A stretch of DNA of 64,000 bases from Eledone cirrhosa (lineage: Eukaryota). Shown here one piece after another: positions 14,251 to 49,600 of the stretch (its first letter is position 1; every line of letters starts with the position of its first letter). The stretch spans positions 299,894,001 to 299,958,000 of the forward strand of contig OZ024740.1 in the NCBI GenBank assembly GCA_964016885.1, written 5' to 3'. The translations under genes and the position numbers were made by a program. The notes under the pieces were generated by a model. It saw only the letters and a program-made list of their open reading frames with translations. It was not told the origin of the DNA and ran no database searches.

Positions 14251-14968
14251 CTGTGAATCTCAGTCATTGATGTTGGTTAACTGGAAAGTCCGTTGGAATG
14301 AATATCAAGCCACAACCTGCAGCCTCAGATATTCAGGACGTATCGGAGGGTTCTTGCTGTTCCAAGCAAGCATGCCTTTTGAAGCGTTCCAAAAAGCGTG
14401 AAGGGGCCGATTTCTTTAACCATCCCTGGAAACTTTTGGAGATAGTCCCCAGTGCGCCTATGACAATCGGGATCACTTTGACTTCATGGCAGTTCCAAAT
14501 CCTTTTCACCTCCCACTTTTGGTCTTGGTATCGGTTAATTTTCTCCCTCTCCTTCTCTTGCACTCTCGTGTCGAAAGGGCAGGCCACATCCACAATCAGA
14601 CACGATCTTTTTTCTTTGTCCACAACCACCAGGTCAGGTCTATTGTGTTCCAATTTTTGTCCGTCTGTATCCTAAAATCCCACAGCACCTTCACCTGATT
14701 GTTCTCCATCACCGCCTCTGGCCTATGCTCATACCATTTCTCAGAATGTGGTAAATTGTTTACTTTGCACAGGTGCCAGTGGATCACCCTGCCCATCACA
14801 TCGTGTCTCCAGCCCTTATAGTGGGTCTGGGCTAGGTGTTTACACTCGGACACAATGTGAGCCACAATCTCCTCTCTCTCTCCACAGATCCTGCACAGTG
14901 GGCTAGCCTCCTCCTTGTAAATATGGTGCTTCAACCACTTCGTTTTGAGGGCCTGCTCCTGCGCAGCG
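14251..14968 (-). mobile_element. R4/Dong-like RLE LINE, 5'-truncated copy 1
   Basis: AAQEQAL, CRICGEREE..HIVSEC (CCHC), RHD, WDF..HNRPDL..IVDVACP (RLE), VIPIVIGALG; 3' end in (TAA)n. Confidence 0.92.
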
Positions 14969-15191
14969 GTGGTCAGGGTCACTGTGGCTTTTTAATGGGC
15001 TTTCTCCACGAATGTCGCTCGGAAGTCTCCCCCCTATTGGGGAATTTTTTCATTGTTCTATTATTACATCGTCTGTTTCTTGTTTTTTTTTTACACGCAG
15101 AAATGCCCTTTTGTACCGTTCTGTATTGTCCTGTACTGTCCTTAATGTATACTTTGTATAAACCCTTGTGGTTAATAAAGAAAGCATTATT
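14969..15191 (+). mobile_element. 3' UTR fragment of the Tx1-like LINE
   Basis: Matches 21650-21850; ends gttaataaagaaagcattatt. Confidence 0.88.
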
Positions 15192-15262
15192 TACCAGTAA
15201 TGCACTGGGTAATTGCTGGCCTTGTGCCTAACGTAGAAACAATTATTATTATTATTGTTATT

Positions 15263-15936
15263 GTTCTTTGAGTCTCAGTCATTGATGTTATTTAACTGGA
15301 AAGTTTGTTGAAATGAATATCAAGTCGCTACCAGCAGCCTCAGATATTCAGGACGTATCGGAGGGTTCTTGCTGTTCCCAGCAAGCATGCCTTTTGAAGT
15401 GTTCCAAAAAGCGGGGCTGAACTAACTTTCTTTAACCATCCTTGGAAACTCTTTGAGAAAGGACCTAGTGCGCCTATCACAATCGGGACGACTCAGACTT
15501 CATGGCAGTTCCTTTTTACCTCCCACTTTAAGTCCTGGTATCGATTAATTTTTTTCCCTTTCCTTTTGCTGCACTCTCGTTTCGAATGGGCAGGCTACAT
15601 CTACAATAAGGCACGATCTTTTTTGCTTGTCCAAAACCACCAGGTCAGGTCTATTGTGTTCGAGGTTTTTGTCTGTCTGTATCCTAAAATCACACACCAC
15701 CTTCACCTGATCGTTTTCTATCACCGACTCTGGCTTATGCTCATCCCACTTCTCAGAATGTGGTAAATTGTTTATTTTGCATAGGTGCCAGTGGATCACC
15801 CTGCCCATCACATCATGTCTCCAGCCTTTATAGTGAGTCTGGTCTAGGTGTTTACACTCGGATACAATGTAAGCCACAGTCTCCTCTCTCTCCCCACAGA
15901 TCCTACACAGTGGGCTAGACTCCTCCTTGTAAATAT
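15263..15936 (-). mobile_element. R4/Dong-like LINE, 5'-truncated copy 2
   Basis: Same motifs as copy 1; bounded by (TTA)n. Preceded by a SINE tail at 15192-15262. Confidence 0.92.
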
Positions 15937-15959
15937 GATTATTATTATTATTATTATTG

Positions 15960-16666
15960 TTCTTTGAGTCTCAGTCATTGATGTTATTTAACTGGAAAGT
16001 TTGTTTAATGAATATCAAGCCACTACCTGCAGCCTCAGATATTCAGGCCGTATCGGAGGGTTCTTGATATTACCAGCAAGCATGCCTTTTGAAGTGTTCC
16101 AAAAAGCGGGGCGGGGCCAATTTTCCCTGGAAACTTTTTGAGATAGTACCTAGTGCGCCCATGACACTCGGGACCACTTTGACTTCATGGCAGTTCCAAA
16201 TCCTTTTTACCCCCCACTTTAAGTCCTGGTATCGGTTAATTTTCTCCCTCTCCTTCTCTTGCAATCTCGTGTCGAATGGGCAGGCTACATCCACAATCAG
16301 GCACGATCTTTTTTCCTTGTCCAAAACCACCAGGTCAGGTCTATTGTGTTCCAGTTTCTTGTCCGTCTGTATCCTAAAATCCCTCAGCACCTTCACCTGA
16401 TCGTTTTCTATCACCGACTCTGGCTTATGCTCATACCACTTCTCAGAATGTGGTAAATTGTTTACTTTGCATAGTTGCAAGTGGATCACCCTGCCCATCA
16501 CATCATGTCTCCAGCCTTTATAGTGAGTCTGGGCTAGGTGTTTACACTCGGATACAATGTGAGCCACAGTCTCCTCTCTCCACAGATCCTGCACAGTGGG
16601 CTAGCCTCCTCCTTGTAAATATGGTGTTTCAGCCACTTCGTTTTGAGAGCCTGCTCTTGTGCAGCG
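15960..16666 (-). mobile_element. R4/Dong-like LINE, 5'-truncated copy 3
   Basis: Same motifs; (TTA)n on both sides. Confidence 0.92.
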
Positions 16667-18931: not shown

Positions 18932-21620
18932 ATGACCTCACTCAGAATAGGCAGCATAAAAGCGCGTGGTCTGGGGTTGTTTATGGAAGCAGGGCCACCT
19001 GCACAATGACCTCAGGTCACTAAACATAGATGTGGTGGCTATCAGCGAGACCAGAATCTCCGAAGCACGACCCTTCGCAGCGATCTTCCGTGGCTACGAT
19101 GTGTACGTATCTTCCAGCCGTCCAGGATCGGGGGAAGGAGTTGCTGTGCTTTTTCGGAGAGGTTTGGATATCGCCATACGGGACATTTTCCTGGACCCAG
19201 AAGGTAAGTTGGTGGTGCTGGACCAGCGGAGACGGGCAAACTTTCAGGCTAGTGGCCGTCTATATTAACATCAGACTGGGAAAAGCCTGGGGAGCATTGA
19301 ATTCAATGGAAAAGATATGGAAATCAAACCTGTCGGCCAAACAGAAAAGGAATTTCTTCAGAGCTGCTGTGGAATCTGTGCTTATTTATGGCTCTATCAC
19401 TTGGACGCTAACGTCGAAACTGGAGAAAGAGCTAGACGTGGCATACGCACATATGCTCCGCGCTGCTTTAAACGTGTCTTGGAGGGAACACCCAACAAAT
19501 AAGGATCTCTATGGCAATATACCACCTATCAGCAGGTCAATACGTGGACAGAGACTCAGATTTGCTGGTCACTGTTGGCGCAGCAAGGAAGAAATAGCAG
19601 GTGATGTGTTGTTATGGAGTCCATCTCATGGAGCAAGAAACGCTTGTCGTCCCAAGAAGACATACGTCAAGCAACTTGAGGACGATACTGGATGCACTGC
19701 GGAAGAACTGGCAAACGCTATGAGAGACAGAGATGGATGGAGGAAACTTGTCGTAGAAAGACGAGCAAGCTCAACCTGATGATGATAGCCGTCTATGCCC
19801 CGAGAGGAGCAGGGCGGCCTAATTTCTTCCGACATCTGGAGACCATTCTTAGAACATCCCGCTCTTTAATATTAGTGGGTGACTGGAACGTGATATTAGA
19901 TGCACGCTGGAGTGTGTGGGATTAGCGGATAGGGGAGGAGGGTGTAAAAGCCTCGCAAACCTGCTCAGACGGTTTCAACTGTCTGACAGGTACCGCCTGG
20001 ATTTCCCGAATGTGCCAGTGGGGGCATGGACAAACCGCATCGAGTCATCCATATCATATCTAGATAGGGTATTTTCTAGTGAAATCGATAGGTCTCATTT
20101 CAAAATAGTCGACTACACGGACCACAAATTCGTGATCTGTGAGGTTGAATTAGATAGGCTTCATAGACAGGGACCCGGTTACTGGAAGCTAAACGCGTCG
20201 ATAACAGCGCGCAAGAACTACAGAGACCGGATTAGCGAACAAGTTAAGCGGGCATTGACGGGGGTCGTCGTCAACAACAAATGGTGGTTTGCTCTGAAAA
20301 GAGCGATTGAATAATGTCCATTAGGTTTAGTAAGGCTTTAGCAATAGAGAAAAATAGAGCAGAGGGAGAACTAGTTAGAAAATTAGACGAGGCGCTTAGC
20401 AAAGGCATTTCAACCGACGTACTTGACCAATTCTTCAATGCAAAGGACGAAGGTTGCGTTGTCAGAGCTAGGGTGCGTGCTCTCAGCCACGAGGGGTCGA
20501 AATCCGTTCAATGGGCCTGAGTGGCGGAGACGCGTCGTGGCAACAAAGCCCCGATCCGGTCTTTGGTGGACCACGACGGGCGCATGCTACTCGATCCCAG
20601 CAAATGTGTGAAGCTTTTCAGCGACACTTCTCTCAGCTGTTCGGGGGCCGCGGCGGGCCGGATCAAGGGATGGACTTTAGTGCCTACCTCGACGGACTGC
20701 CGCGGCTCTCGGCCACTGAGGCGGAGTGTTGCGAAAAGCCGATAACGGCCGCTGAATTACGGGAGGCAATGACTAGCTGCACAAGGGGTAACTCGCCTGG
20801 TTTGGGTGGTCTGCCCTATTAACTTCACGTACACATGCCAGACTTGTTCGGAGGCCTCTTGGCGGACGTCTAATGCAACTGGCAATAGAACGGGAGAATT
20901 CCCAGCTCTGCTAAACACAGAGTTCAAGATTTTGGCCAAGGTGCTAGGAAAGAGGTTGGCGCTTATCGTTGGTGGTCTGATGGGAGAGGCGCAGACACGG
21001 TGGAAACTCCACGTTGGTGTTCTATAGAGGATTAGTATAGGGGAAGAGCAACGACGTACTTAGAGAAACTCTAGGCGTCGACGAAAATCAACTAGCCAAT
21101 CTCTTCGGAAGAAATTTTGGACCGAGGCCTATGGACAACTTCCAGAAATCCCTGACCTGGCAAGGCTACCGAGGAGCTTTGCCAGTTCGGGATAAACTCC
21201 GCAGGCATGAAGATGCCGTCAGCTGGGCATGTCTGAGATGCGCGCATGACAACGAAACCCTCCTGCACGCACTCGTCCAGTGTCCGATCATTGTCGAACA
21301 CCTGCTGTCGCGTGTAGGACGGATCCCCCTATCAGCTGAGTCTATCGTGAGGATTGCCGCACCCTCTTCGATTAGCCGGGAAGGGCAGTAAGTCTTTATC
21401 TGCCTGGTGGCCATGGCGAAAGAGATAGTATGGTGGACGCGTTTGAAAGGGCTGAAGACGAGCACTTACCTCTTCGGTGATGCTCTGATTAACTTTTTCA
21501 AATTTCATTTGAAAAGGAAAATCATGGAAGAGAGGGAAGTGTTCTCTTCCCCGCATTTTGTTGAAAGATGGGTGAGAGAAGCGAGAATGGCCCGAGTATG
21601 TGTCTGTAAATTGAAGGTGG
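18932..21620 (+). pseudogene. Tx1-like ORF2 (APE endonuclease, RT start, C-terminal Zn finger); RT core deleted
   Basis: IGSIKARGL, DVVAISETR, LVAVY|AP, LVGDWNVILD, SYLDRV, YTDHK, GPGYWKLNAS, SPGLGGLPY, LLNTEFKILAKVL, then a jump to CLRC..ETLLHALVQC. Confidence 0.9.
19264..19787 (+). mobile_element. 5'-truncated RTE LINE nested in the Tx1 endonuclease, with 9-bp TSD
   Basis: RLGKAWGA..AVESVLIYGSITWTL..LRFAGHCWR; (TGA)n tail; gccgtctat at 19255-19263 and 19788-19796. Confidence 0.93.
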
Positions 21621-21924
21621 AAAACTGGGAGAGGACAATTGCCCTCTGTGGTCAGGGTCACCGTGGCTTTTTTTTAATGGGCTTTCTCCACTATGGCCCT
21701 CGGAAGTCTCCCCCCTATTGGGGAATTTTCCATTGTTTCGTTTTTGTTACATCCTCTGATTTTGTTTTTTTTACGCGCAGAAATGCCCATTTGTACTGTC
21801 CTTAATGTCTTACTTTGTGTAAACCCTTGTGGTTAATAAAGAAAGCATTATTATTATTATAATTACTATTATTATTAGTATGATTATTATTCCTCCTACT
21901 CCTCCTCTGACTACTACTACTACT

Positions 21925-35947: not shown

Positions 35948-36357
35948 CCATAAATGGGAAGATTGCAGTTGTCAAAAGAATTCGTTAAAATTTGTTGTAA
36001 ACACAAATACGTCTATCATGGCATTTGGTGGGAGGTAGGGGTGGCTGAACTTGCCTGTAGAACTATAGGGGAGTGAGTGGAGCGGTCAAGCGTTGAAAGT
36101 GATATGTATACAGCATATTCTAAGGATAGTGTATGAAGTGGAGGAGGGAGGTTATAGAATAGGTAAATCGAATGAGAGTAGGAGACAATAAAAGATAATA
36201 GAAATAAATAAAAAATAAATATAAAATTAGATAGTGAGAAATGAATAAAAAATCACAATGCTATCTTACAATTACAGGTTAATAAGTTGAGAATAGAAAA
36301 AACTTGTCGAAATTGAGTAGTAACAAAACTGATACAAAATTAAAGGGGTTTAACAGT

Positions 36358-37528
36358 ATGGGCGCGAGGGATTCAGCCGAGGTCACATATTTTATAGGAT
36401 TATTCCTACTATTTAAACTCACCGAAATGTTTCCTGCATTCGGCGGTGGATTGTACCGGGATGATGAGCTCCTCACCCTCAAAGGGTACAACCCCAGTAG
36501 TACAGACCTGGCCCGTAAACAACTAATCAACTTCTCCCGGGACTGGGGATTTAAAATCACCCTACAATCGTCCCTAACGCTAGTCAATTTCCTGGACGTT
36601 ACCCTTAACCTCGAAAATGATCTGTACTACCCATACAGGAAACCAAACGACAGCCTGCACTACATCCACAGCCGCTCTAACCATCCTAGAAACATCACCA
36701 ATAACCTGGTTAAAAACAACTCCCTCCGCATATCTCGTTTGTCCGCTAATGAGCAGATATTCGACGAACACGCGCCTCAAGCGGAGTGGCCTCCGGGAGG
36801 AAATATCCTTTTATCCAGCCTCCCTTAGCGGAACCGGCAGGCGACACCGCCGATCACGCCACGTAACGTGGTTCAATCCTCCCCATAATGCTGAGGTGGC
36901 AACACCTATCGAGAAAATCTTCTTTAGACTCCTCGAAAAACACTTCCAACTACAACACTGCTACCACAACATAATCAACAGAAACACCATCAAACTCTCC
37001 TACAGCGCCACACTTAACTTCACACAAAACATCGTCTCGTCAAACTCAACCCCTATGGAAGAAATAATCTAGACATCAGTGGAGAGCCGACCAGGAGGTG
37101 TAACTGCCCTGATAGTTCTACGTGTCCCCTCAACAACAGATGCCGAGAACGTAACGTGATCTACCAGTGCAACGTGAGGACGGACACCTCCAACAAAGCT
37201 TATATAGGATTAACCGCGTGTGACTTCAAGACCCGGCTCTACCAACACCGACATACTTTCCGAAACCAGGTCCGGCGACATGCCACTACACTTTCGGGCC
37301 ACATCTGGGACCTGAAAGATAATAATATAACCTACAATTTCACTTGGAGCTTACTGTCCAGAGCTAACTCTTACACGGGAGGACGCCGTCCGTGTAACTT
37401 ATGCTCGGAGGAAACATTACAAATACTGATTTCGAAGGACCAACTCCTAAACAAGAAAGACAAACTGGTAAACACAGATTGCGTAGGACATACCTCGCCT
37501 TCAAACCCCATAACGACCCGTCTAGGTA
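36358..37528 (+). pseudogene. PLE RT (3' half) + GIY-YIG endonuclease, frameshifted
   Basis: MGARDSAEV, GLYRDD, NFLDVTLNL, YRKPN, SNHP, WFNPP, CNC..CPL..C, VIYQC..AYIGLT..FKTRLYQH, CNLCSEE. Confidence 0.92.
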
Positions 37529-38212
37529 GACAAGGGCTGATACCCCCCCATTTGGCGAATAAGTTAGGGGAAACCCCAGCTTACATAGGTAGATGTATCT
37601 CTTTTCTTTTCCTCTGTGTCTTCTTCTTCCCCCTATCTCATCCTATCACTTCTTTCCACTCCCTATTTTCTTCCTCGTCTGCTTTCCCCTTTCGCCTACC
37701 CCGACGCAGCCCATCATGCCTCTGTACTATCAGTTCCCCCACCCCTGTAATTTTAAGAAAGAATTGGCCGAATATGTTTTACTAACTACTTATAGCAGAT
37801 GTGTTAAACCCCTTTAATTTTGTATCATTTTTGTTACTACTCAATTTCTACATGTTTTTTTACTATTCTCATCTTATTAACCTGTAATTGTAAGATAGCA
37901 TTGTGATTTTTTTTATTCATTTCTCACTATCTAATTTTATATATTTTTTTTATTTCTTTCTATTATCTTTTATTGTCTCCTACTCTCATTCGATTTACCT
38001 ATTCTATAACCTCCTTCCTCCACTTCATACACTATCCTTAGAATCTGCTGTATACATATCACATTCAACGCTTGACCGCTCCACTCACTCCCCTATTCTT
38101 CTACAGACAAGTTCAGCCACCCTATCTCTCACCAAATGCCATGATAGACTTATTTGTGTTTACAACAAATTTTAACCAATCTTCTTGACAACTACAATCT
38201 TTCCATATAAGG

Positions 38213-38320
38213 AAGTACCCCTTTGACAAGTTCGGCTATTTATTCACCATGCTAAAAATTCTAATTTAGTCCAGAAATAGCCGTCGAAACGGCTTGAGCT
38301 CTTCCGTCGGGGTCATACTT
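38213..38320 (+). ncRNA. Hammerhead with U3-A8 core in right pLTR
   Basis: AAGUACCCCU-UUGACAA-GUUCGGCUAUUU..AAAUAGCCGUC-GAAA-CGG..CC-GUC-GGGGUCAUACUU. Confidence 0.75.
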
Positions 38321-38364
<44 letters not shown>

Positions 38365-38517
38365 ATAAATGCTCTGAAATAGCGATATATATGTGAATAT
38401 AGACATAGAATATTCGAAAATATTCTGTATGTTTATAATAAACATTTTGAAGACCTAATCGCTATAGAATAGAATACGTCACGTATTACAATTAGATTCT
38501 CGATAAAAGCAAGGGAA

Positions 38518-38560
38518 GTAATCTACGCGTTTCATTCTCGTTAGAAATCATCAGGACTAC
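38518..38560 (-). ncRNA. Minimal type I hammerhead, first of 7 minus-strand copies (period 310, last at 40378-40420)
   Basis: GUAGUC-CUGAUGA-UUUCU AACG AGAAU-GAAA-CGC-GUA-GAUUAC; palindromic stem III ACGCGU. Confidence 0.92.
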
Positions 38561-40771
38561 ATATCCAGTGCTTTTATCGAGAATGACACAGCTAGAGACT
38601 TATAGAATACTTAGCTGTGTACAGGAACTGGTTTGAAAGAGCGGTTGCCGGTCCGGCAGAAATTAGAAATTGGAATAAATGCTCTGAAATAGCGATATAT
38701 ATGTGAATATAGACATAGAATATTCGAAAATATTCTGTATGTTTATAATAAACATTTTGAAGACCTAATCGCTATAGAATAGAATACGTCACGTATTACA
38801 ATTAGATTCTCGATAAAAGCAAGGGAAGTAATCTACGCGTTTCATTCTCGTTAGAAATCATCAGGACTACATATCCAGTGCTTTTATCGAGAATGACACA
38901 GCTAGAGACTTATAGAATACTTAGCTGTGTACAGGAACTGGTTTGAAAGAGCGGTTGCCGGTCCGGCAGAAATTAGAAATTGGAATAAATGCTCTGAAAT
39001 AGCGATATATATGTGAATATAGACATAGAATATTCGAAAATATTCTGTATGTTTATAATAAACATTTTGAAGACCTAATCGCTATAGAATAGAATACGTC
39101 ACGTATTACAATTAGATTCTCGATAAAAGCAAGGGAAGTAATCTACGCGTTTCATTCTCGTTAGAAATCATCAGGACTACATATCCAGTGCTTTTATCGA
39201 GAATGACACAGCTAGAGACTTATAGAATACTTAGCTGTGTACAGGAACTGGTTTGAAAGAGCGGTTGCCGGTCCGGCAGAAATTAGAAATTGGAATAAAT
39301 GCTCTGAAATAGCGATATATATGTGAATATAGACATAGAATATTCGAAAATATTCTGTATGTTTATAATAAACATTTTGAAGACCTAATCGCTATAGAAT
39401 AGAATACGTCACGTATTACAATTAGATTCTCGATAAAAGCAAGGGAAGTAATCTACGCGTTTCATTCTCGTTAGAAATCATCAGGACTACATATCCAGTG
39501 CTTTTATCGAGAATGACACAGCTAGAGACTTATAGAATACTTAGCTGTGTACAGGAACTGGTTTGAAAGAGCGGTTGCCGGTCCGGCAGAAATTAGAAAT
39601 TGGAATAAATGCTCTGAAATAGCGATATATATGTGAATATAGACATAGAATATTCGAAAATATTCTGTATGTTTATAATAAACATTTTGAAGACCTAATC
39701 GCTATAGAATAGAATACGTCACGTATTACAATTAGATTCTCGATAAAAGCAAGGGAAGTAATCTACGCGTTTCATTCTCGTTAGAAATCATCAGGACTAC
39801 ATATCCAGTGCTTTTATCGAGAATGACACAGCTAGAGACTTATAGAATACTTAGCTGTGTACAGGAACTGGTTTGAAAGAGCGGTTGCCGGTCCGGCAGA
39901 AATTAGAAATTGGAATAAATGCTCTGAAATAGCGATATATATGTGAATATAGACATAGAATATTCGAAAATATTCTGTATGTTTATAATAAACATTTTGA
40001 AGACCTAATCGCTATAGAATAGAATACGTCACGTATTACAATTAGATTCTCGATAAAAGCAAGGGAAGTAATCTACGCGTTTCATTCTCGTTAGAAATCA
40101 TCAGGACTACATATCCAGTGCTTTTATCGAGAATGACACAGCTAGAGACTTATAGAATACTTAGCTGTGTACAGGAACTGGTTTGAAAGAGCGGTTGCCG
40201 GTCCGGCAGAAATTAGAAATTGGAATAAATGCTCTGAAATAGCGATATATATGTGAATATAGACATAGAATATTCGAAAATATTCTGTATGTTTATAATA
40301 AACATTTTGAAGACCTAATCGCTATAGAATAGAATACGTCACGTATTACAATTAGATTCTCGATAAAAGCAAGGGAAGTAATCTACGCGTTTCATTCTCG
40401 TTAGAAATCATCAGGACTACATATCCAGTGCTTTTATCGAGAATGACACAGCTAGAGACTTATAGAATACTTAGCTGTGTACAGGAATGAAACGCGTAGA
40501 TTACTTCCCTTGCTTTTATCGAGAATCTAATTGTAATACGTGACGTATTCTATTCTATAGCGATTAGGTCTTCAAAATGTTTATTATAAACATACAGAAT
40601 ATTTTCGAATATTCTATGTCTATATTCACATATATATCGCTATTTCAGAGCATTTATTCCAATTTCTAATTTCTGCCGGACCGGCAACCGCTCTTTCAAA
40701 CCAGTTCCTGTACACAGCTAAGTATTCTATAAGTCTCTAGCTGTGTCATTCTCGATAAAAGCACTGGATAT

Positions 40772-40814
40772 GTAGTCCTGATGATTTCTAACGAGAATGA
40801 AACGCGTAGATTAC
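40772..40814 (+). ncRNA. Minimal type I hammerhead, first of 3 plus-strand copies (also 41082-41124, 41392-41434)
   Basis: Same motif; stem I is extended by a 16-bp helix AUUCUCGAUAAAAGCA/UGCUUUUAUCGAGAAU. Confidence 0.92.
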
Positions 40815-41563
40815 TTCCCTTGCTTTTATCGAGAATCTAATTGTAATACGTGACGTATTCTATTCTATAGCGATTAGGTCTTCAAAATGTTTATTATAAA
40901 CATACAGAATATTTTCGAATATTCTATGTCTATATTCACATATATATCGCTATTTCAGAGCATTTATTCCAATTTCTAATTTCTGCCGGACCGGCAACCG
41001 CTCTTTCAAACCAGTTCCTGTACACAGCTAAGTATTCTATAAGTCTCTAGCTGTGTCATTCTCGATAAAAGCACTGGATATGTAGTCCTGATGATTTCTA
41101 ACGAGAATGAAACGCGTAGATTACTTCCCTTGCTTTTATCGAGAATCTAATTGTAATACGTGACGTATTCTATTCTATAGCGATTAGGTCTTCAAAATGT
41201 TTATTATAAACATACAGAATATTTTCGAATATTCTATGTCTATATTCACATATATATCGCTATTTCAGAGCATTTATTCCAATTTCTAATTTCTGCCGGA
41301 CCGGCAACCGCTCTTTCAAACCAGTTCCTGTACACAGCTAAGTATTCTATAAGTCTCTAGCTGTGTCATTCTCGATAAAAGCACTGGATATGTAGTCCTG
41401 ATGATTTCTAACGAGAATGAAACGCGTAGATTACTTCCCTTGCTTTTATCGAGAATCTAATTGTAATACGTGACGTATTCTATTCTATAGCGATTAGGTC
41501 TTCAAAATGTTTATTATAAACATACAGAATATTTTCGAATATTCTATGTCTATATTCATATAT

Positions 41564-41619
<56 letters not shown>

Positions 41620-44030: not shown

Positions 44031-44419
44031 CCAGATTTAGCAATGGCCAGATGGCCAGCAGTTGTCCATCTGGCCATTGCTAAATCTGACCTTTATAAAA
44101 TAACCCACTCCCCCAAATAACTCCTCATTCACTACCAGAAAGGCACACAGCAGTCAACTTGCTGCTACCAAGATGAAAACTACTATGAAATCCCACACTG
44201 AATTTTATACTTGAATTTTCAAATCTCAAATTTTAACTCTTCTTATTATTAATTTTCTTAATATTAATCAACATTTGAAAAGATGGCTTTTGCAGACCCA
44301 TCGAAACCGGTCATTTTGTATACCCTTTATTATTTCCTTACCTTATAAAATTATATGTTTTTTCACAAAAAAGTATTCTGTCTCTTATATATTCCATGTG
44401 CCATTACCAACCTCAATTT

Positions 44420-46671: not shown

Positions 46672-49600
46672 TATAAACGTTTGGAGTTAGAAGGCCAGAA
46701 CAAGGTAGGTATGGATATAGAATATAAATACAAATGCAAAAGATATTGCTGACAATTAGTCTTTTACCTTAAATTTATTTGAATATCCTTAATTTTCGAG
46801 ATAATATCTATTCTTCGGGAAGTAAAGGGAAGTAAAGGGGTTAATCCAGTGTTCTAATAACCTTGCCAAGTCATACTGACAGAAAAGAGTATAGAAATTC
46901 CATTCTATTTCTAATGTCAAAGAGTGAAGGTTAGGTGGAGAAAGGGTTGTCTCCCTTTAAATAGGTTTGGACATGTATGTCTAAGTGTGTGTGGGAGAAT
47001 ACGTGAAGGTGTAAGCATGCGTGTGTGTGTGTGTGTGTGAGTGTGAGAGGATATGTTTATATGTAAATGTGGAGGCTCTATCATGTTAAAACTGGTCTAT
47101 ATATGTGTATGTGTGGGTGTGAGAGAGAATAAGTGAAGGTGTAAGCGTGTGTGTGTGTGTGTGCGTGTGTGTGTGTGTGAGATGGTACGTGGAGGTGTAA
47201 GTGTGGGGGCTAGGTGCTCTATCATGTTAAAAATTGGGTGTTGAGTTCTAGTCTGGTATTGATTGGTGGTTGTGTTTTGTCTAAAATTACTGCTTCTTTA
47301 ATTCTAAGATTGCCGAGGTTTCTTTCCTTAGCGTCTATCCTAACTATTATGTTTTTGTCGGTATTTATGCATTTCACTAGGTGTTTCTTAAATGAGGAAG
47401 CATTAGTGTTGAGGTGTTCTTTTATTCTAATGTGAAGTGGTCTGGTGGTGCTATGTATGTAGAAATTGCTGCACACTTGTCGCACTCTAGTCTGTATACG
47501 ACGTAAGCCTGGTGGCATAGGTGTGTCATCGATGGGGCAGTTGGCTCGCCTGCAGCGGATGTCATGTCTGGTAGAGTGTCTGTCGGTTAGCTGTCCGCGT
47601 AGAGAAGGTCCTGAGTGGGCTAGCTGGATATTTAGTCCCTCTCGTCTGATAGCTCTGCGGATGGCTGTTGGTGTTTCGTCACTGACGTGTGGGAGCTTTA
47701 GGAAGCAGGTGTTAGTGCCTCGGGTGTGGTGTCCTCTGTTGTTTCAGGCATGGTTCGCGGTGGACGTCGGGTATCTGTTCAGTTTAAGTACTTCCAGGAA
47801 ATGTGTGGTGTGCGTGTCTCGGTCTCTTGTGTCGGTGCATTTGTTCCAGATACGTGTTAGTACGCTCCTTATGTATCCGAACTTAGCGCTGACTGGGAGG
47901 GCTGATCTGAAATGTACCAACAGGTCCCTGCTGGCGGCTTTTTTATAGAAGCAGGTGTGGATGTCGCCTTCCTCTGTTACCCTGAGTTGGAAGTCCAAAA
48001 GGGATAGGGATCCGCGGTCATCGGGATGTTCCATGCTGAAGTTTATATTGGCGTCCATGCTGGAGAATGTCATGTATATTTTATCCGCTTCCTCACAGGA
48101 TGATGTAAGGATGAGTAGGTCATCTACATATCGGGTGAAGAAGGTATAGGAATGGCAGGTGTTGAGGGCTCGGCATTCCAGCTGGTTCATATAAGTGATG
48201 GTCAGCAGGCCCGATAGGCTGGATCCCACGGGTAATCCTGTTGTCTGTCTGTATGTGTGGTGCTGGAAGGTGAGGTACGTGTTGTCCACTGTGAAGGACA
48301 AAAGCTGGTGTATGTCTGTCGGATGGAGGCCGTAGCAGTAGAGGTCTTCTGAAACCATTCAGTCCGTCAATAAATCGAGAGCTGGATGAGCGGGGACTGT
48401 AGTGTAGAGGGAGACAACGTGGAGGCTAAAGGCGTAACTATTTAGTTTAAGTTGTTCTGGCTGGAGTTGCTGTAGTCTACGCATGACCTCGTCAGAGCTA
48501 CTGACATGCCCGGAAAAGGTGGAGAGTAGAGGCTTGAGGATCTGGGAGACGAGCCAGGAGAGTTTGTATAGGGGACCTTCTATGCTAGAGATGATGGGTC
48601 TTATTTGTGTTTAGTAATATTCTTTTGGGTCTTGATGAGGTGATAGAAAGTGGGCAGTCTGCTATTTCTAGTGGTGTAATTGAACTTAAATTTATTTGGG
48701 AGTTGTCTTCTACTACAGATGTCGAACCAGATGGAGTTGGCCTGCTTTTCGATCTTGGCTGCAGTTATGTCGGGGACCTCTCTATACAGTTCGTTGTCGC
48801 TTAAGTGTTCAAATGATAGCTTGAGAGATGACACAAAACTCGTTACCTTTGTCGGATGGTAAGTATATGAGTTCCCTATTCCGCAGGTTCTTCAGGGCGA
48901 GTTGTTGCGTCCTGGAGAGGTTTGGCGCTATCTTCTTCTGTTTCCGTAAGATGTTAAATATTGAATGTTTTAATTTTTCTTCCAGCTTGTGGTTGGCAGA
49001 CGGTGGACAGAGTGGGTAGTCCAGTTGGTATATCGGGAATCTGGTTGTGTTAGATTCCGTGGTGTTGTTGCCCACGGTCGATATCCATTTTAGTTGGTAG
49101 GCGGCCCGACAGAAATTTGTTTCTATGTCGAGCCATAATTTGTCGTCCAGACTCTGTTTCAATATGAATTTGAGACCCAGGCTGAGGAAGTCTAGTTCAT
49201 CTCGGGAGAGGGATCCTGTCAAGTCTGTGACAAGGTGTTTTGCGTCAGGTTTGTTGTAGGTGGGGGCGCCGCTAGGTTCGATGTTGGTACCGTCTTGTTC
49301 GCCTCTGTTGGTGCTTAGAGTTGGGTTGTTGTTAGGACGGTCAGCCGTGTTGAGCTTGATACATTTTTTGCTTTAGTCGTATTTTCTTAAAATCTCTGCG
49401 ATGGTGGAAGGACCTGTCTATAGCGGCGAAAATTACTCTGTGCAGAGGTTCTGGGGTTTCAGCGAGTCGTGGTACTAGGCTGGAAATTGTCCGTATGTGT
49501 TGTTGCAGCGTGCAGTGTAGGTGTTGTATGAGTTTTCTTATGCAGAATTTTTTGTATGTAGCTAAGTAATCGTTTGAGGCCTGGTGATTGGAAGCATGTT

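Follow-up and report, generated by a model that had tools for sequence, protein, structure and literature searches.

Inverted hammerhead retrozyme arrays of Eledone cirrhosa carry an integration footprint resembling that of Penelope-like elements

The window analysed here is a stretch of 64,000 nucleotides (nt) from Eledone cirrhosa (assembly GCA_964016885.1, contig OZ024740.1, positions 299,894,001 to 299,958,000, forward strand), and coordinates given without a locus name refer to it. It holds an array of 310-bp units, each complete unit with a hammerhead ribozyme (HHR), in two divergent arms that are joined 5'-to-5' and flanked by (TA)n. The array was probably laid down in a single recent insertion, in which the protein of a Penelope-like element (PLE) primed from both (TA)n ends on one RNA of 310 nt, itself probably circular. 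Priming from both ends by a PLE-type enzyme is very likely; that a monomeric circle was the main template is favoured with less assurance. The evidence comes mainly from the ends, junctions and sequence variants of the array and its relatives at 110 loci.

Results

Structure of the array

Units were numbered along the RNA-sense strand, position 1 being window 40809, the first base 3' of the predicted cleavage site. The features of the array are listed below.

38325–38360, no strand: left (TA)n target repeat, from the sequence
38359–40487, RNA sense on minus: left arm, 6.87 identical units with 7 hammerhead cores, from periodicity
38359–38393, minus: 35-nt "tail", unit positions 131–165, present only at the left-arm end; length and placement as in a PLE tail (PMC8557442, PMC11167929)
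40485–40487, no strand: inversion junction, a 3-nt overlap GAA, from alignment of the arms
40485–41558, RNA sense on plus: right arm, 3.46 identical units with 3 complete hammerhead cores, from periodicity
40748–40836, plus: one complete type I hammerhead, core 40778–40808, predicted cleavage after GUA at 40808
40809–41118, plus: one predicted monomer from cleavage site to cleavage site, unit positions 1–310
40867–40953, plus: conserved domain at the first initiation site, a candidate protein-binding element (fold z -3.0, covariation)
41558–41600, no strand: (TA)n target repeat on the right, with (AG)n beyond it

The 310-nt periodicity is exact over both arms, with 0 mismatches in either, and reverse-complementing the multimer gives a sequence that contains the right arm exactly. 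All ten cores are identical (CTGATGA-N14-GAAACGCGTA), seven lying on the minus strand (38524–38554 to 40384–40414) and three on the plus strand (40778–40808, 41088–41118 and 41398–41428). The left arm has its inner (5') end at unit position 207 and its outer (3') end at 165, and the right arm runs from 297 to 130, where a T replaces C131 before (AT)n begins; both outer ends adjoin (TA)n. The GAA of the junction corresponds to unit positions 297–299, two bases upstream of the core GAAA. The 0 differences in 3.2 kb place divergence under about 0.1% and make the insertion a recent one, unless polishing has masked differences. A preliminary description of this DNA had reported ten hammerheads in units without visible differences, a central inversion with arms ending at different phases in (TA)n, and GAA microhomology at the join, all as found here.

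The longest ATG open reading frame (ORF) in the unit is 30 amino acids (aa), and there is no ORF for reverse transcriptase (RT) plus GIY-YIG, so the unit is not an autonomous PLE. Dispersed tandem units within the 150–400 nt range, one type I HHR in each, the lack of an ORF and a GC content below 50% place the array, by its sequence, in a known class, the retrozymes without long terminal repeats (non-LTR retrozymes).

Inversion and paired outer ends

Outer ends were classed as E130 (positions 130–139, ambiguous through AUAUAUAU in the unit) or E165 (positions 163–172). Of 111 stretches parsed, one was a duplicate, which left 110 loci: the window, 10 chosen by the core, 20 by the E165 end, 20 with an unpaired E165 end, 19 with an unpaired E130 end and 40 known pairs. 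At first parse, 96/110 loci were two-armed and every one of these was divergent; all 91 that were complete had one E130 and one E165 end. When six loci cut short in the parsed stretches were extended, the complementary end appeared in 6/6, giving one end of each type at 97/97 loci. An inverted 5'-truncated copy was thus present at 97/110 loci, and the inversion, at first read as a singular event, proved to be the usual arrangement, with two fixed and paired ends. Among the 70 loci not picked as pairs, 57 were two-armed, and 9/10 other arrays were inverted (core matches listed first). One of the 110 loci was interrupted by an assembly gap.

The same pairing was seen from coordinates only: on C1, 61/89 E165 ends among the matches listed faced a divergent E130 within 20 kb and none faced an E165, while a lone E130–E130 candidate resolved to two adjacent arrays. 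Two loci on C2 agree, and the minus-then-plus order also occurs on C3, C4 and C14. Short-read contigs of the independent run X3 ended loosely at 40947 (10 contigs, TA-repeat consensus), which is position 139, and at 40978 (1 contig), which is position 170. In four runs mapped to the unit, no strand-switch joint was listed at the 3% threshold, so the reads gave no confirmation of the inversion junctions.

The two ends, offset by about 35 nt, give the two-armed insertions a tail at one end, within the 30–40 bp described for PLEs. By eye, (TA)n stood at both ends in all of the 91 loci except L032. Target-site duplications, which in non-LTR retrozymes exceed 4 bp where they occur, are masked by the (TA)n; among the 91 loci, candidates of 43 nt (L032) and 25 nt (L088) were found in imperfect microsatellites. 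The offset matches the PLE tail, which derives from two internal RT starts, and the fixed, paired ends speak for an enzyme of Penelope-like type.

Junctions and template

Ninety-four junctions were scored, with L042 and L053 set aside as complex: 59 showed overlap, 15 were blunt and 20 had inserted bases. Overlaps of at least 2 nt occurred in 43/74 insertion-free junctions, against 18.5% by chance (p = 4e-14). At L042 (4843–5020) the junction is a double fold-back with four segments of alternating orientation. At L053 (3099–3370) a 272-bp sequence has been captured in the inversion junction; it was considered as a PLE and rejected as LINE-like (long interspersed nuclear element), and dozens of copies lie on C25 at 19–24 Mb.

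The 5' ends of 187 arms were spread evenly over the unit (chi-square p = 0.17), so no meaning attaches to the placement of the window junction beside the HHR GAAA, which the preliminary description had noted. Also rejected were a tie between the junction and the HHR and, separately, a stop of the arms after whole turns or at the cleavage site. The cleavage site was passed by 178/187 arms, and 4/187 stopped within 5 nt of it (6 expected). Since the 5' ends are even, do not pile up at the cleavage site and belong mostly to arms that read through it, the template was not a cleaved linear monomer. The T in place of C131 recurs in 62/101 E130 ends, as expected if a (TA)n primer covered that base.

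The majority haplotype was equal between the arms in 61/72 arrays (12% by chance), and nine of the eleven disagreements were sporadic changes in short arms. Seventeen variants seen at one locus only were fixed throughout their array, for example in 25/25 and 22/22 passes. Such array-wide private variants need a bottleneck of a single unit, most simply through repeated reading of one unit. From the window, a single recent insertion had been put forward, with priming at both target ends, a join by microhomology and many units copied from one template, and the loci support it.

Hammerhead ribozyme and RNA fold

By motif and fold, the core has the form CUGANGA / GAAA / UH with helices I to III in type I order, and the array is classed as a type I hammerhead array for which self-cleavage is predicted. 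No Rfam family reached its gathering score in the window and no hammerhead family appeared at E ≤ 10 within 40600–41000; the ribozyme call therefore rests on motif, fold and natural covariation. Folding of 40744–40840 gave a 6-bp stem I with a 16-bp extension (-31.9 kcal/mol, z -5.7, 0/200 shuffles). The circular monomer folded at -67.8 against -49.5 ± 4.8 for 200 shuffles (z -3.8). The unit had been called highly self-complementary, which is right for the named stems, the stem I extension being present in the fold, but is overstated elsewhere, with 60% of bases paired against 56% in shuffles; in tgccggtccggca, proposed as a self-complementary element, the centre is 1 nt, which rules out full pairing.

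Helix III is the palindrome ACGCGU, with two pairs round the palindrome, and pairing between two copies is possible. Canonical metazoan HHRs are described with the same two pairs round a palindrome and a dimeric hammerhead arrangement (PMC4209133). The base of helix II (10.1–11.1) is unpaired in the window array, where it is U·U, as is also described for the axolotl HHR_Amex2 (PMC7229834). Elsewhere it is A-U, fixed in 20 loci, or G·U, in 95 copies; at position 10.1, 95/99 G or C variants are the pairing G (both counts among the matches listed). The candidate binding domain has a closing stem of 59–64 with 140–145 around a hairpin at 95–120, whose loop is UUCG here and GCAA in the related family B.

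In the helices, 8 inherited variants preserve pairing and 2 disrupt it; the corresponding counts for sporadic variants are 8 and 18 (Fisher p = 0.011). The inherited variants are located at N7, loop II and the U·U pair. In the ribozyme core there were 0/35 inherited against 8/137 sporadic variants, a difference not significant alone. Covariation was found in 5/21 pairs, which change on both sides among 6 related sequences only; in family B, C3-G8 becomes U3-A8, a covariation already known in hammerheads (PMC4209133). As judged from these variants, the RNA structure is under selection.

Family size, age and relatives

Genome copies were counted by exact sequence patterns. The 32-nt core gave 4,225 exact matches and its reversed control 0, and a tail pattern common to a related family gave 16,142. 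Ends joined to (TA)n numbered 1,196 for the 165/167 type and 1,158 for the 130/139 type, figures that set a minimum for the number of insertions. All units were identical in 25/57 arrays with four or more full units, and the haplotype of the window was the commonest (20/72 arrays).

The families B (321 nt), C and D, which are related and older, can be aligned along the whole unit. A near-invariant block crosses the tail, and changes in stem II and in the hairpin that precedes E130 are compensatory. Family B has a U3-A8 core, and both its ends and its inversion are as in the 310-nt family. The three families were seen in L046, L097, L170, L171, L182–L193, L033 and L096, and at several C-type ends the sequence continues as (CA)n or (TACA)n rather than (TA)n. 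An unrelated hammerhead repeat family of ~490 nt, with internal (TA)n, forms a centrally inverted array in (TA)n at L045 (1900–5550) and also occurs in L037, L040, L097 and L103. Since this array too is inverted, the divergent architecture is not restricted to the 310-nt family.

The unit is present in six sequencing runs, of a kind unrecorded, from four studies and four organisms. Runs X1 and X2 gave one self-closing 340-nt contig each, which is as compatible with a circle as with a tandem array and is given no weight here.

Penelope-like elements and the search for a partner

Elements of PLE type, and a further hammerhead-like motif, lie near the array as follows.

36286–38325, plus: broken Hydra-like Penelope element outside the array, with RT thumb, CxCx5C linker and GIY-YIG, ending in the same (TA)n as the array
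44275–44312, plus: hammerhead-like motif standing alone, with U3-A8 in its core and an ACCGGT palindrome
46675–49372, minus: second PLE family, ending in (TA)n with two ends ~43 nt apart, also in L089 and L102

The neighbouring Penelope element belongs to a family, PLE-A, with 63,210 first-look candidates, some having open frames of 700–790 aa. PLE-A insertions are inverted and two-ended in (TA)n, as the arrays are, with a tail of 79 nt. In L076, PLE-A shows the Hydra-clade motifs RWR, DKT, CNCPDRSIC, CNLC and CKH, with GIY-YIG at its C terminus; a single Cys lies between GIY and YIG, and the clade placement is by motifs alone. In the neighbour itself, a hammerhead-like motif at 38218–38312, 17 nt before the element end, has a U3-A8 core, a long stem II, a GAGCTC palindrome and a GUC site; this core and palindrome are common to it and the family B retrozymes.

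The second family (46675–49372) contained no hammerhead by pattern and no significant similarity to the unit, and a likeness of stem I to the pseudo-long terminal repeat (pLTR) of the PLE at 47–49 kb in the window was not significant. The motif at 44275–44312 resembles a short inverted PLE-type family with a 67-nt tail in L075, L078 and L083. A young Hydra-like PLE at L043/L083 (1750–7050), with a 590-aa open frame and an inverted copy 98.8% identical, has a canonical hammerhead with a AUGCGCAU palindrome 43 nt before the element end, and is a candidate active element. Pfam recognised one of seven PLE pieces.

Units A and B were compared with PLE ends by blastn, nhmmer and local alignment, and the highest z was 1.8. 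Two patterns that excluded family A, to which the 310-nt unit belongs, recovered retrozyme variants only and no PLE partner; for the older families B, C and D, a pattern excluding family A had 2,191 matches. For the partner, a TA-targeting PLE family of the genome is the likeliest candidate. The window also contains, at 14271–16600 and 19030–21805, several broken fragments that we take from their motifs to be of LINEs (RTE-like endonuclease ends and RT pieces).

Discussion

Weighing of the proposed insertion

Several observations weigh against a single PLE-primed insertion copied from one circle. The tails of the PLE families compared were about 43, 67, 79 and 83–90 nt and none was 35, and among the five or so PLE families in the loci examined there was no autonomous PLE or pLTR resembling the unit. 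Nearly all of the 110 loci lie on C1, and the end statistics are enriched because 40 loci were chosen as known pairs and 59 by one end motif. Twelve of the 110 loci have one arm, whose 5' end abuts the opposite TA flank; one of these twelve has in addition a second arm of 7 nt. Eight overlaps of at least 12 nt stem from unit palindromes and mismatch-tolerant alignment, and without them the overlap count falls to 35/66. Assembly polishing can hide differences and so overstate the identity of units. Of nine predicted Xenopus retrozymes, eight failed to cleave in vitro (bioRxiv 10.64898/2026.07.22.740005). At L095/L164 each arm passes through two units of subfamily variant X before variant Y, in the same order from the outer end; at L117 an identical one-unit variant stands at the matching place in both arms; and at L061 a variant changes in one arm only. 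Recurring variants at L050, L052, L053 and L172/173 suggest later duplication, so arm length is not wholly the run length of the polymerase. L172–L173 is an array of ~14.9 kb whose 45-unit arm has irregularly recurring variants, suggesting expansion after insertion.

The variant orders at L095/L164 and L117 bear on the template, as a monomeric circle could not yield them without a simultaneous switch; they imply same-unit starts on one multimer, or joint switching. They lend weight to a reading that keeps PLE double-ended priming and takes the usual template to be an uncleaved linear or large circular multimer, transcribed from a parent array and copied in parallel from starts in one unit or close to it, without a rolling circle. 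L052 and L088 likewise share a sporadic variant between arms, at differing places; a weak helix III and the U·U pair could leave transcripts uncleaved; and for the anole PLE the dominant substrate is reported to be uncleaved RNA (PMC11167929). On the other side, only 2/40 non-fixed variants were common to both arms in 166 same-position unit pairs (L095 not counted), array-wide private variants would still require a one-unit bottleneck somewhere in the lineage, and selection on the ribozyme implies that cleavage matters to propagation. We consider a multimer unlikely as the usual template, and a monomeric circle the more probable one. Repeated turns round a 310-nt circular RNA (circRNA), as proposed for the window, are kept as likely for most loci, and two loci need a multimeric template.

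Twin priming of the LINE type, or dual priming on two RNAs, by an RTE-, CR1- or L1-like enzyme would also leave divergent arms with microhomology at the junction, which are its signature (PMC2837659), and the LINE-like sequence of 272 bp was taken up into the junction at L053. Twin priming accounts for a minority of events, its second site varies and its arms do not overlap, whereas the arrays are inverted as a rule and neither of their sites varies. Poly(A) is absent, and E165 arms have uniform 5' ends (p = 0.76), with no cluster at the second priming site. Two independent RNAs would be expected to match in haplotype in about 12% of arrays, against the 61/72 observed. We regard this origin as very improbable.

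Still less credit is given to an origin at the level of DNA, in which a short insertion would have undergone satellite expansion and been inverted through fold-back repair or recombination, while gene conversion kept the units alike. Some arms were duplicated later, and satellite-style expansion has been proposed for retrozymes (bioRxiv 10.64898/2026.07.22.740005), but such an origin leaves unexplained the two distinct fixed outer ends at 97/97 loci and the non-mirror junctions; selection on RNA structure is limited to inherited variants, and sporadic variants mostly stay unspread. An assembly or read artefact, such as a fold-back chimera or a collapsed repeat, is hardly credible: unit counts in identical repeats may be wrong at the window locus, known here from the assembly, but a chimera would mirror one end and its flank, and here ends and flanks differ, about a hundred loci repeat the pattern with junctions that differ, and the X3 contigs show TA-joined ends.

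A possible route of insertion

The most detailed form of the preferred reading, offered tentatively as plausible but short of probable, is that a PLE dimer carries out double-ended rolling-circle reverse transcription on one ribozyme-made circle, with a fixed start for each target strand, 35 nt apart. Retrozyme transcripts would cut themselves, probably with hammerheads dimerised through the ACGCGU palindrome, and the cleaved monomers would be ligated into 310-nt circles. A dimer of the PLE protein would bind the conserved hairpin domain and nick both strands of a (TA)n repeat. One target end would then prime at 130–139, where AUAUAUAU allows pairing, and the other at 163–172, and both polymerases would run round the same template. 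The two cDNAs would stop at random, and repair would join them 5'-to-5' by microhomology. A minority of insertions would involve a multimeric template or a template switch, and some long arms may have been extended later by tandem duplication. If duplications of the L032/L088 type are general, each insertion would lengthen the supply of (TA)n, and the nesting of PLEs and retrozymes in stacks would be accounted for.

Comparison with known systems

Metazoan non-LTR retrozymes (PMC7229834, bioRxiv 10.64898/2026.07.22.740005) resemble the array in their tandem, non-coding units of 170–400 nt with one type I hammerhead, their low GC and their thousands of copies. Neither an inversion at the centre nor a microsatellite target is described in the available text of these papers, and the same holds for a tail and for fixed ends. 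Expression and circles have been shown there for retrozymes of other species, whereas the array is known here from DNA. PLEs have been proposed as the mobilisers of retrozymes in both papers; in the more recent one the link is by co-occurrence and pLTR similarity, and here it is by the integration footprint, with no pLTR similarity found.

PLE insertions are described as partial tandems with an inverted 5'-truncated copy, a 30–40 bp tail at one end and a (TA)n bias (PMC8557442), and a purified PLE cleaves and extends both strands, with two internal starts bounding the tail and a predicted dimer (PMC11167929). Hydra-clade PLEs are like the arrays in these partial tandems, inverted copies, tails and targets, and also in having a hammerhead upstream of the two internal starts (PMC8557442, PMC11167929). 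The arrays differ in having no ORF and in the copying of a 310-nt unit up to tens of times, and their rule of one end of each type is strict, whereas the start site of the PLE in vitro is reported to be equal between strands (PMC11167929). Non-autonomous PLE-type elements of Chlamys form head-to-tail copies, reportedly without canonical hammerheads (PMC8557442). L1 twin priming shares with the arrays two cDNAs from both target strands, a 5'-to-5' join and microhomology (PMC2837659); the arrays depart from it in lacking poly(A), in a fixed second start, in arms that cover the same template sequence and in having inversion as the main outcome.

No published report of inverted, tailed retrozyme insertions was found, in a search with thin coverage of subscription journals and in which figures or supplements could show such arrays; a term search of the available text of the review PMC7761336 gave no mention of retrozyme inversions or tails. 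The integration footprint on these retrozymes is very regular and, within that search, unreported; the element class itself is known.

Significance

The enzyme that moves retrozymes in animals has so far been argued from co-occurrence and pLTR similarity (bioRxiv 10.64898/2026.07.22.740005). The arrays described here carry the PLE integration footprint itself, which bears directly on which enzyme that is. About 1,200 young, ORF-less insertions of a 310-nt unit form a natural mutational record of the start sites, of the one-of-each rule and of the candidate binding element, to which loci with both ends reading one template add, and they define a minimal substrate for work in vitro. Read-through of an inverted array could yield long double-stranded RNA, up to 1.07 kb here, and may be a built-in trigger of silencing. 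The origin of tandem, inverted and tailed PLE insertions has been called undefined (PMC8557442); if double-ended rolling-circle reading is true, that geometry would give rise to the inverted, tailed insertions of PLEs in general, and in these arrays a genome would for the first time record a circRNA as a direct integration template in animals.

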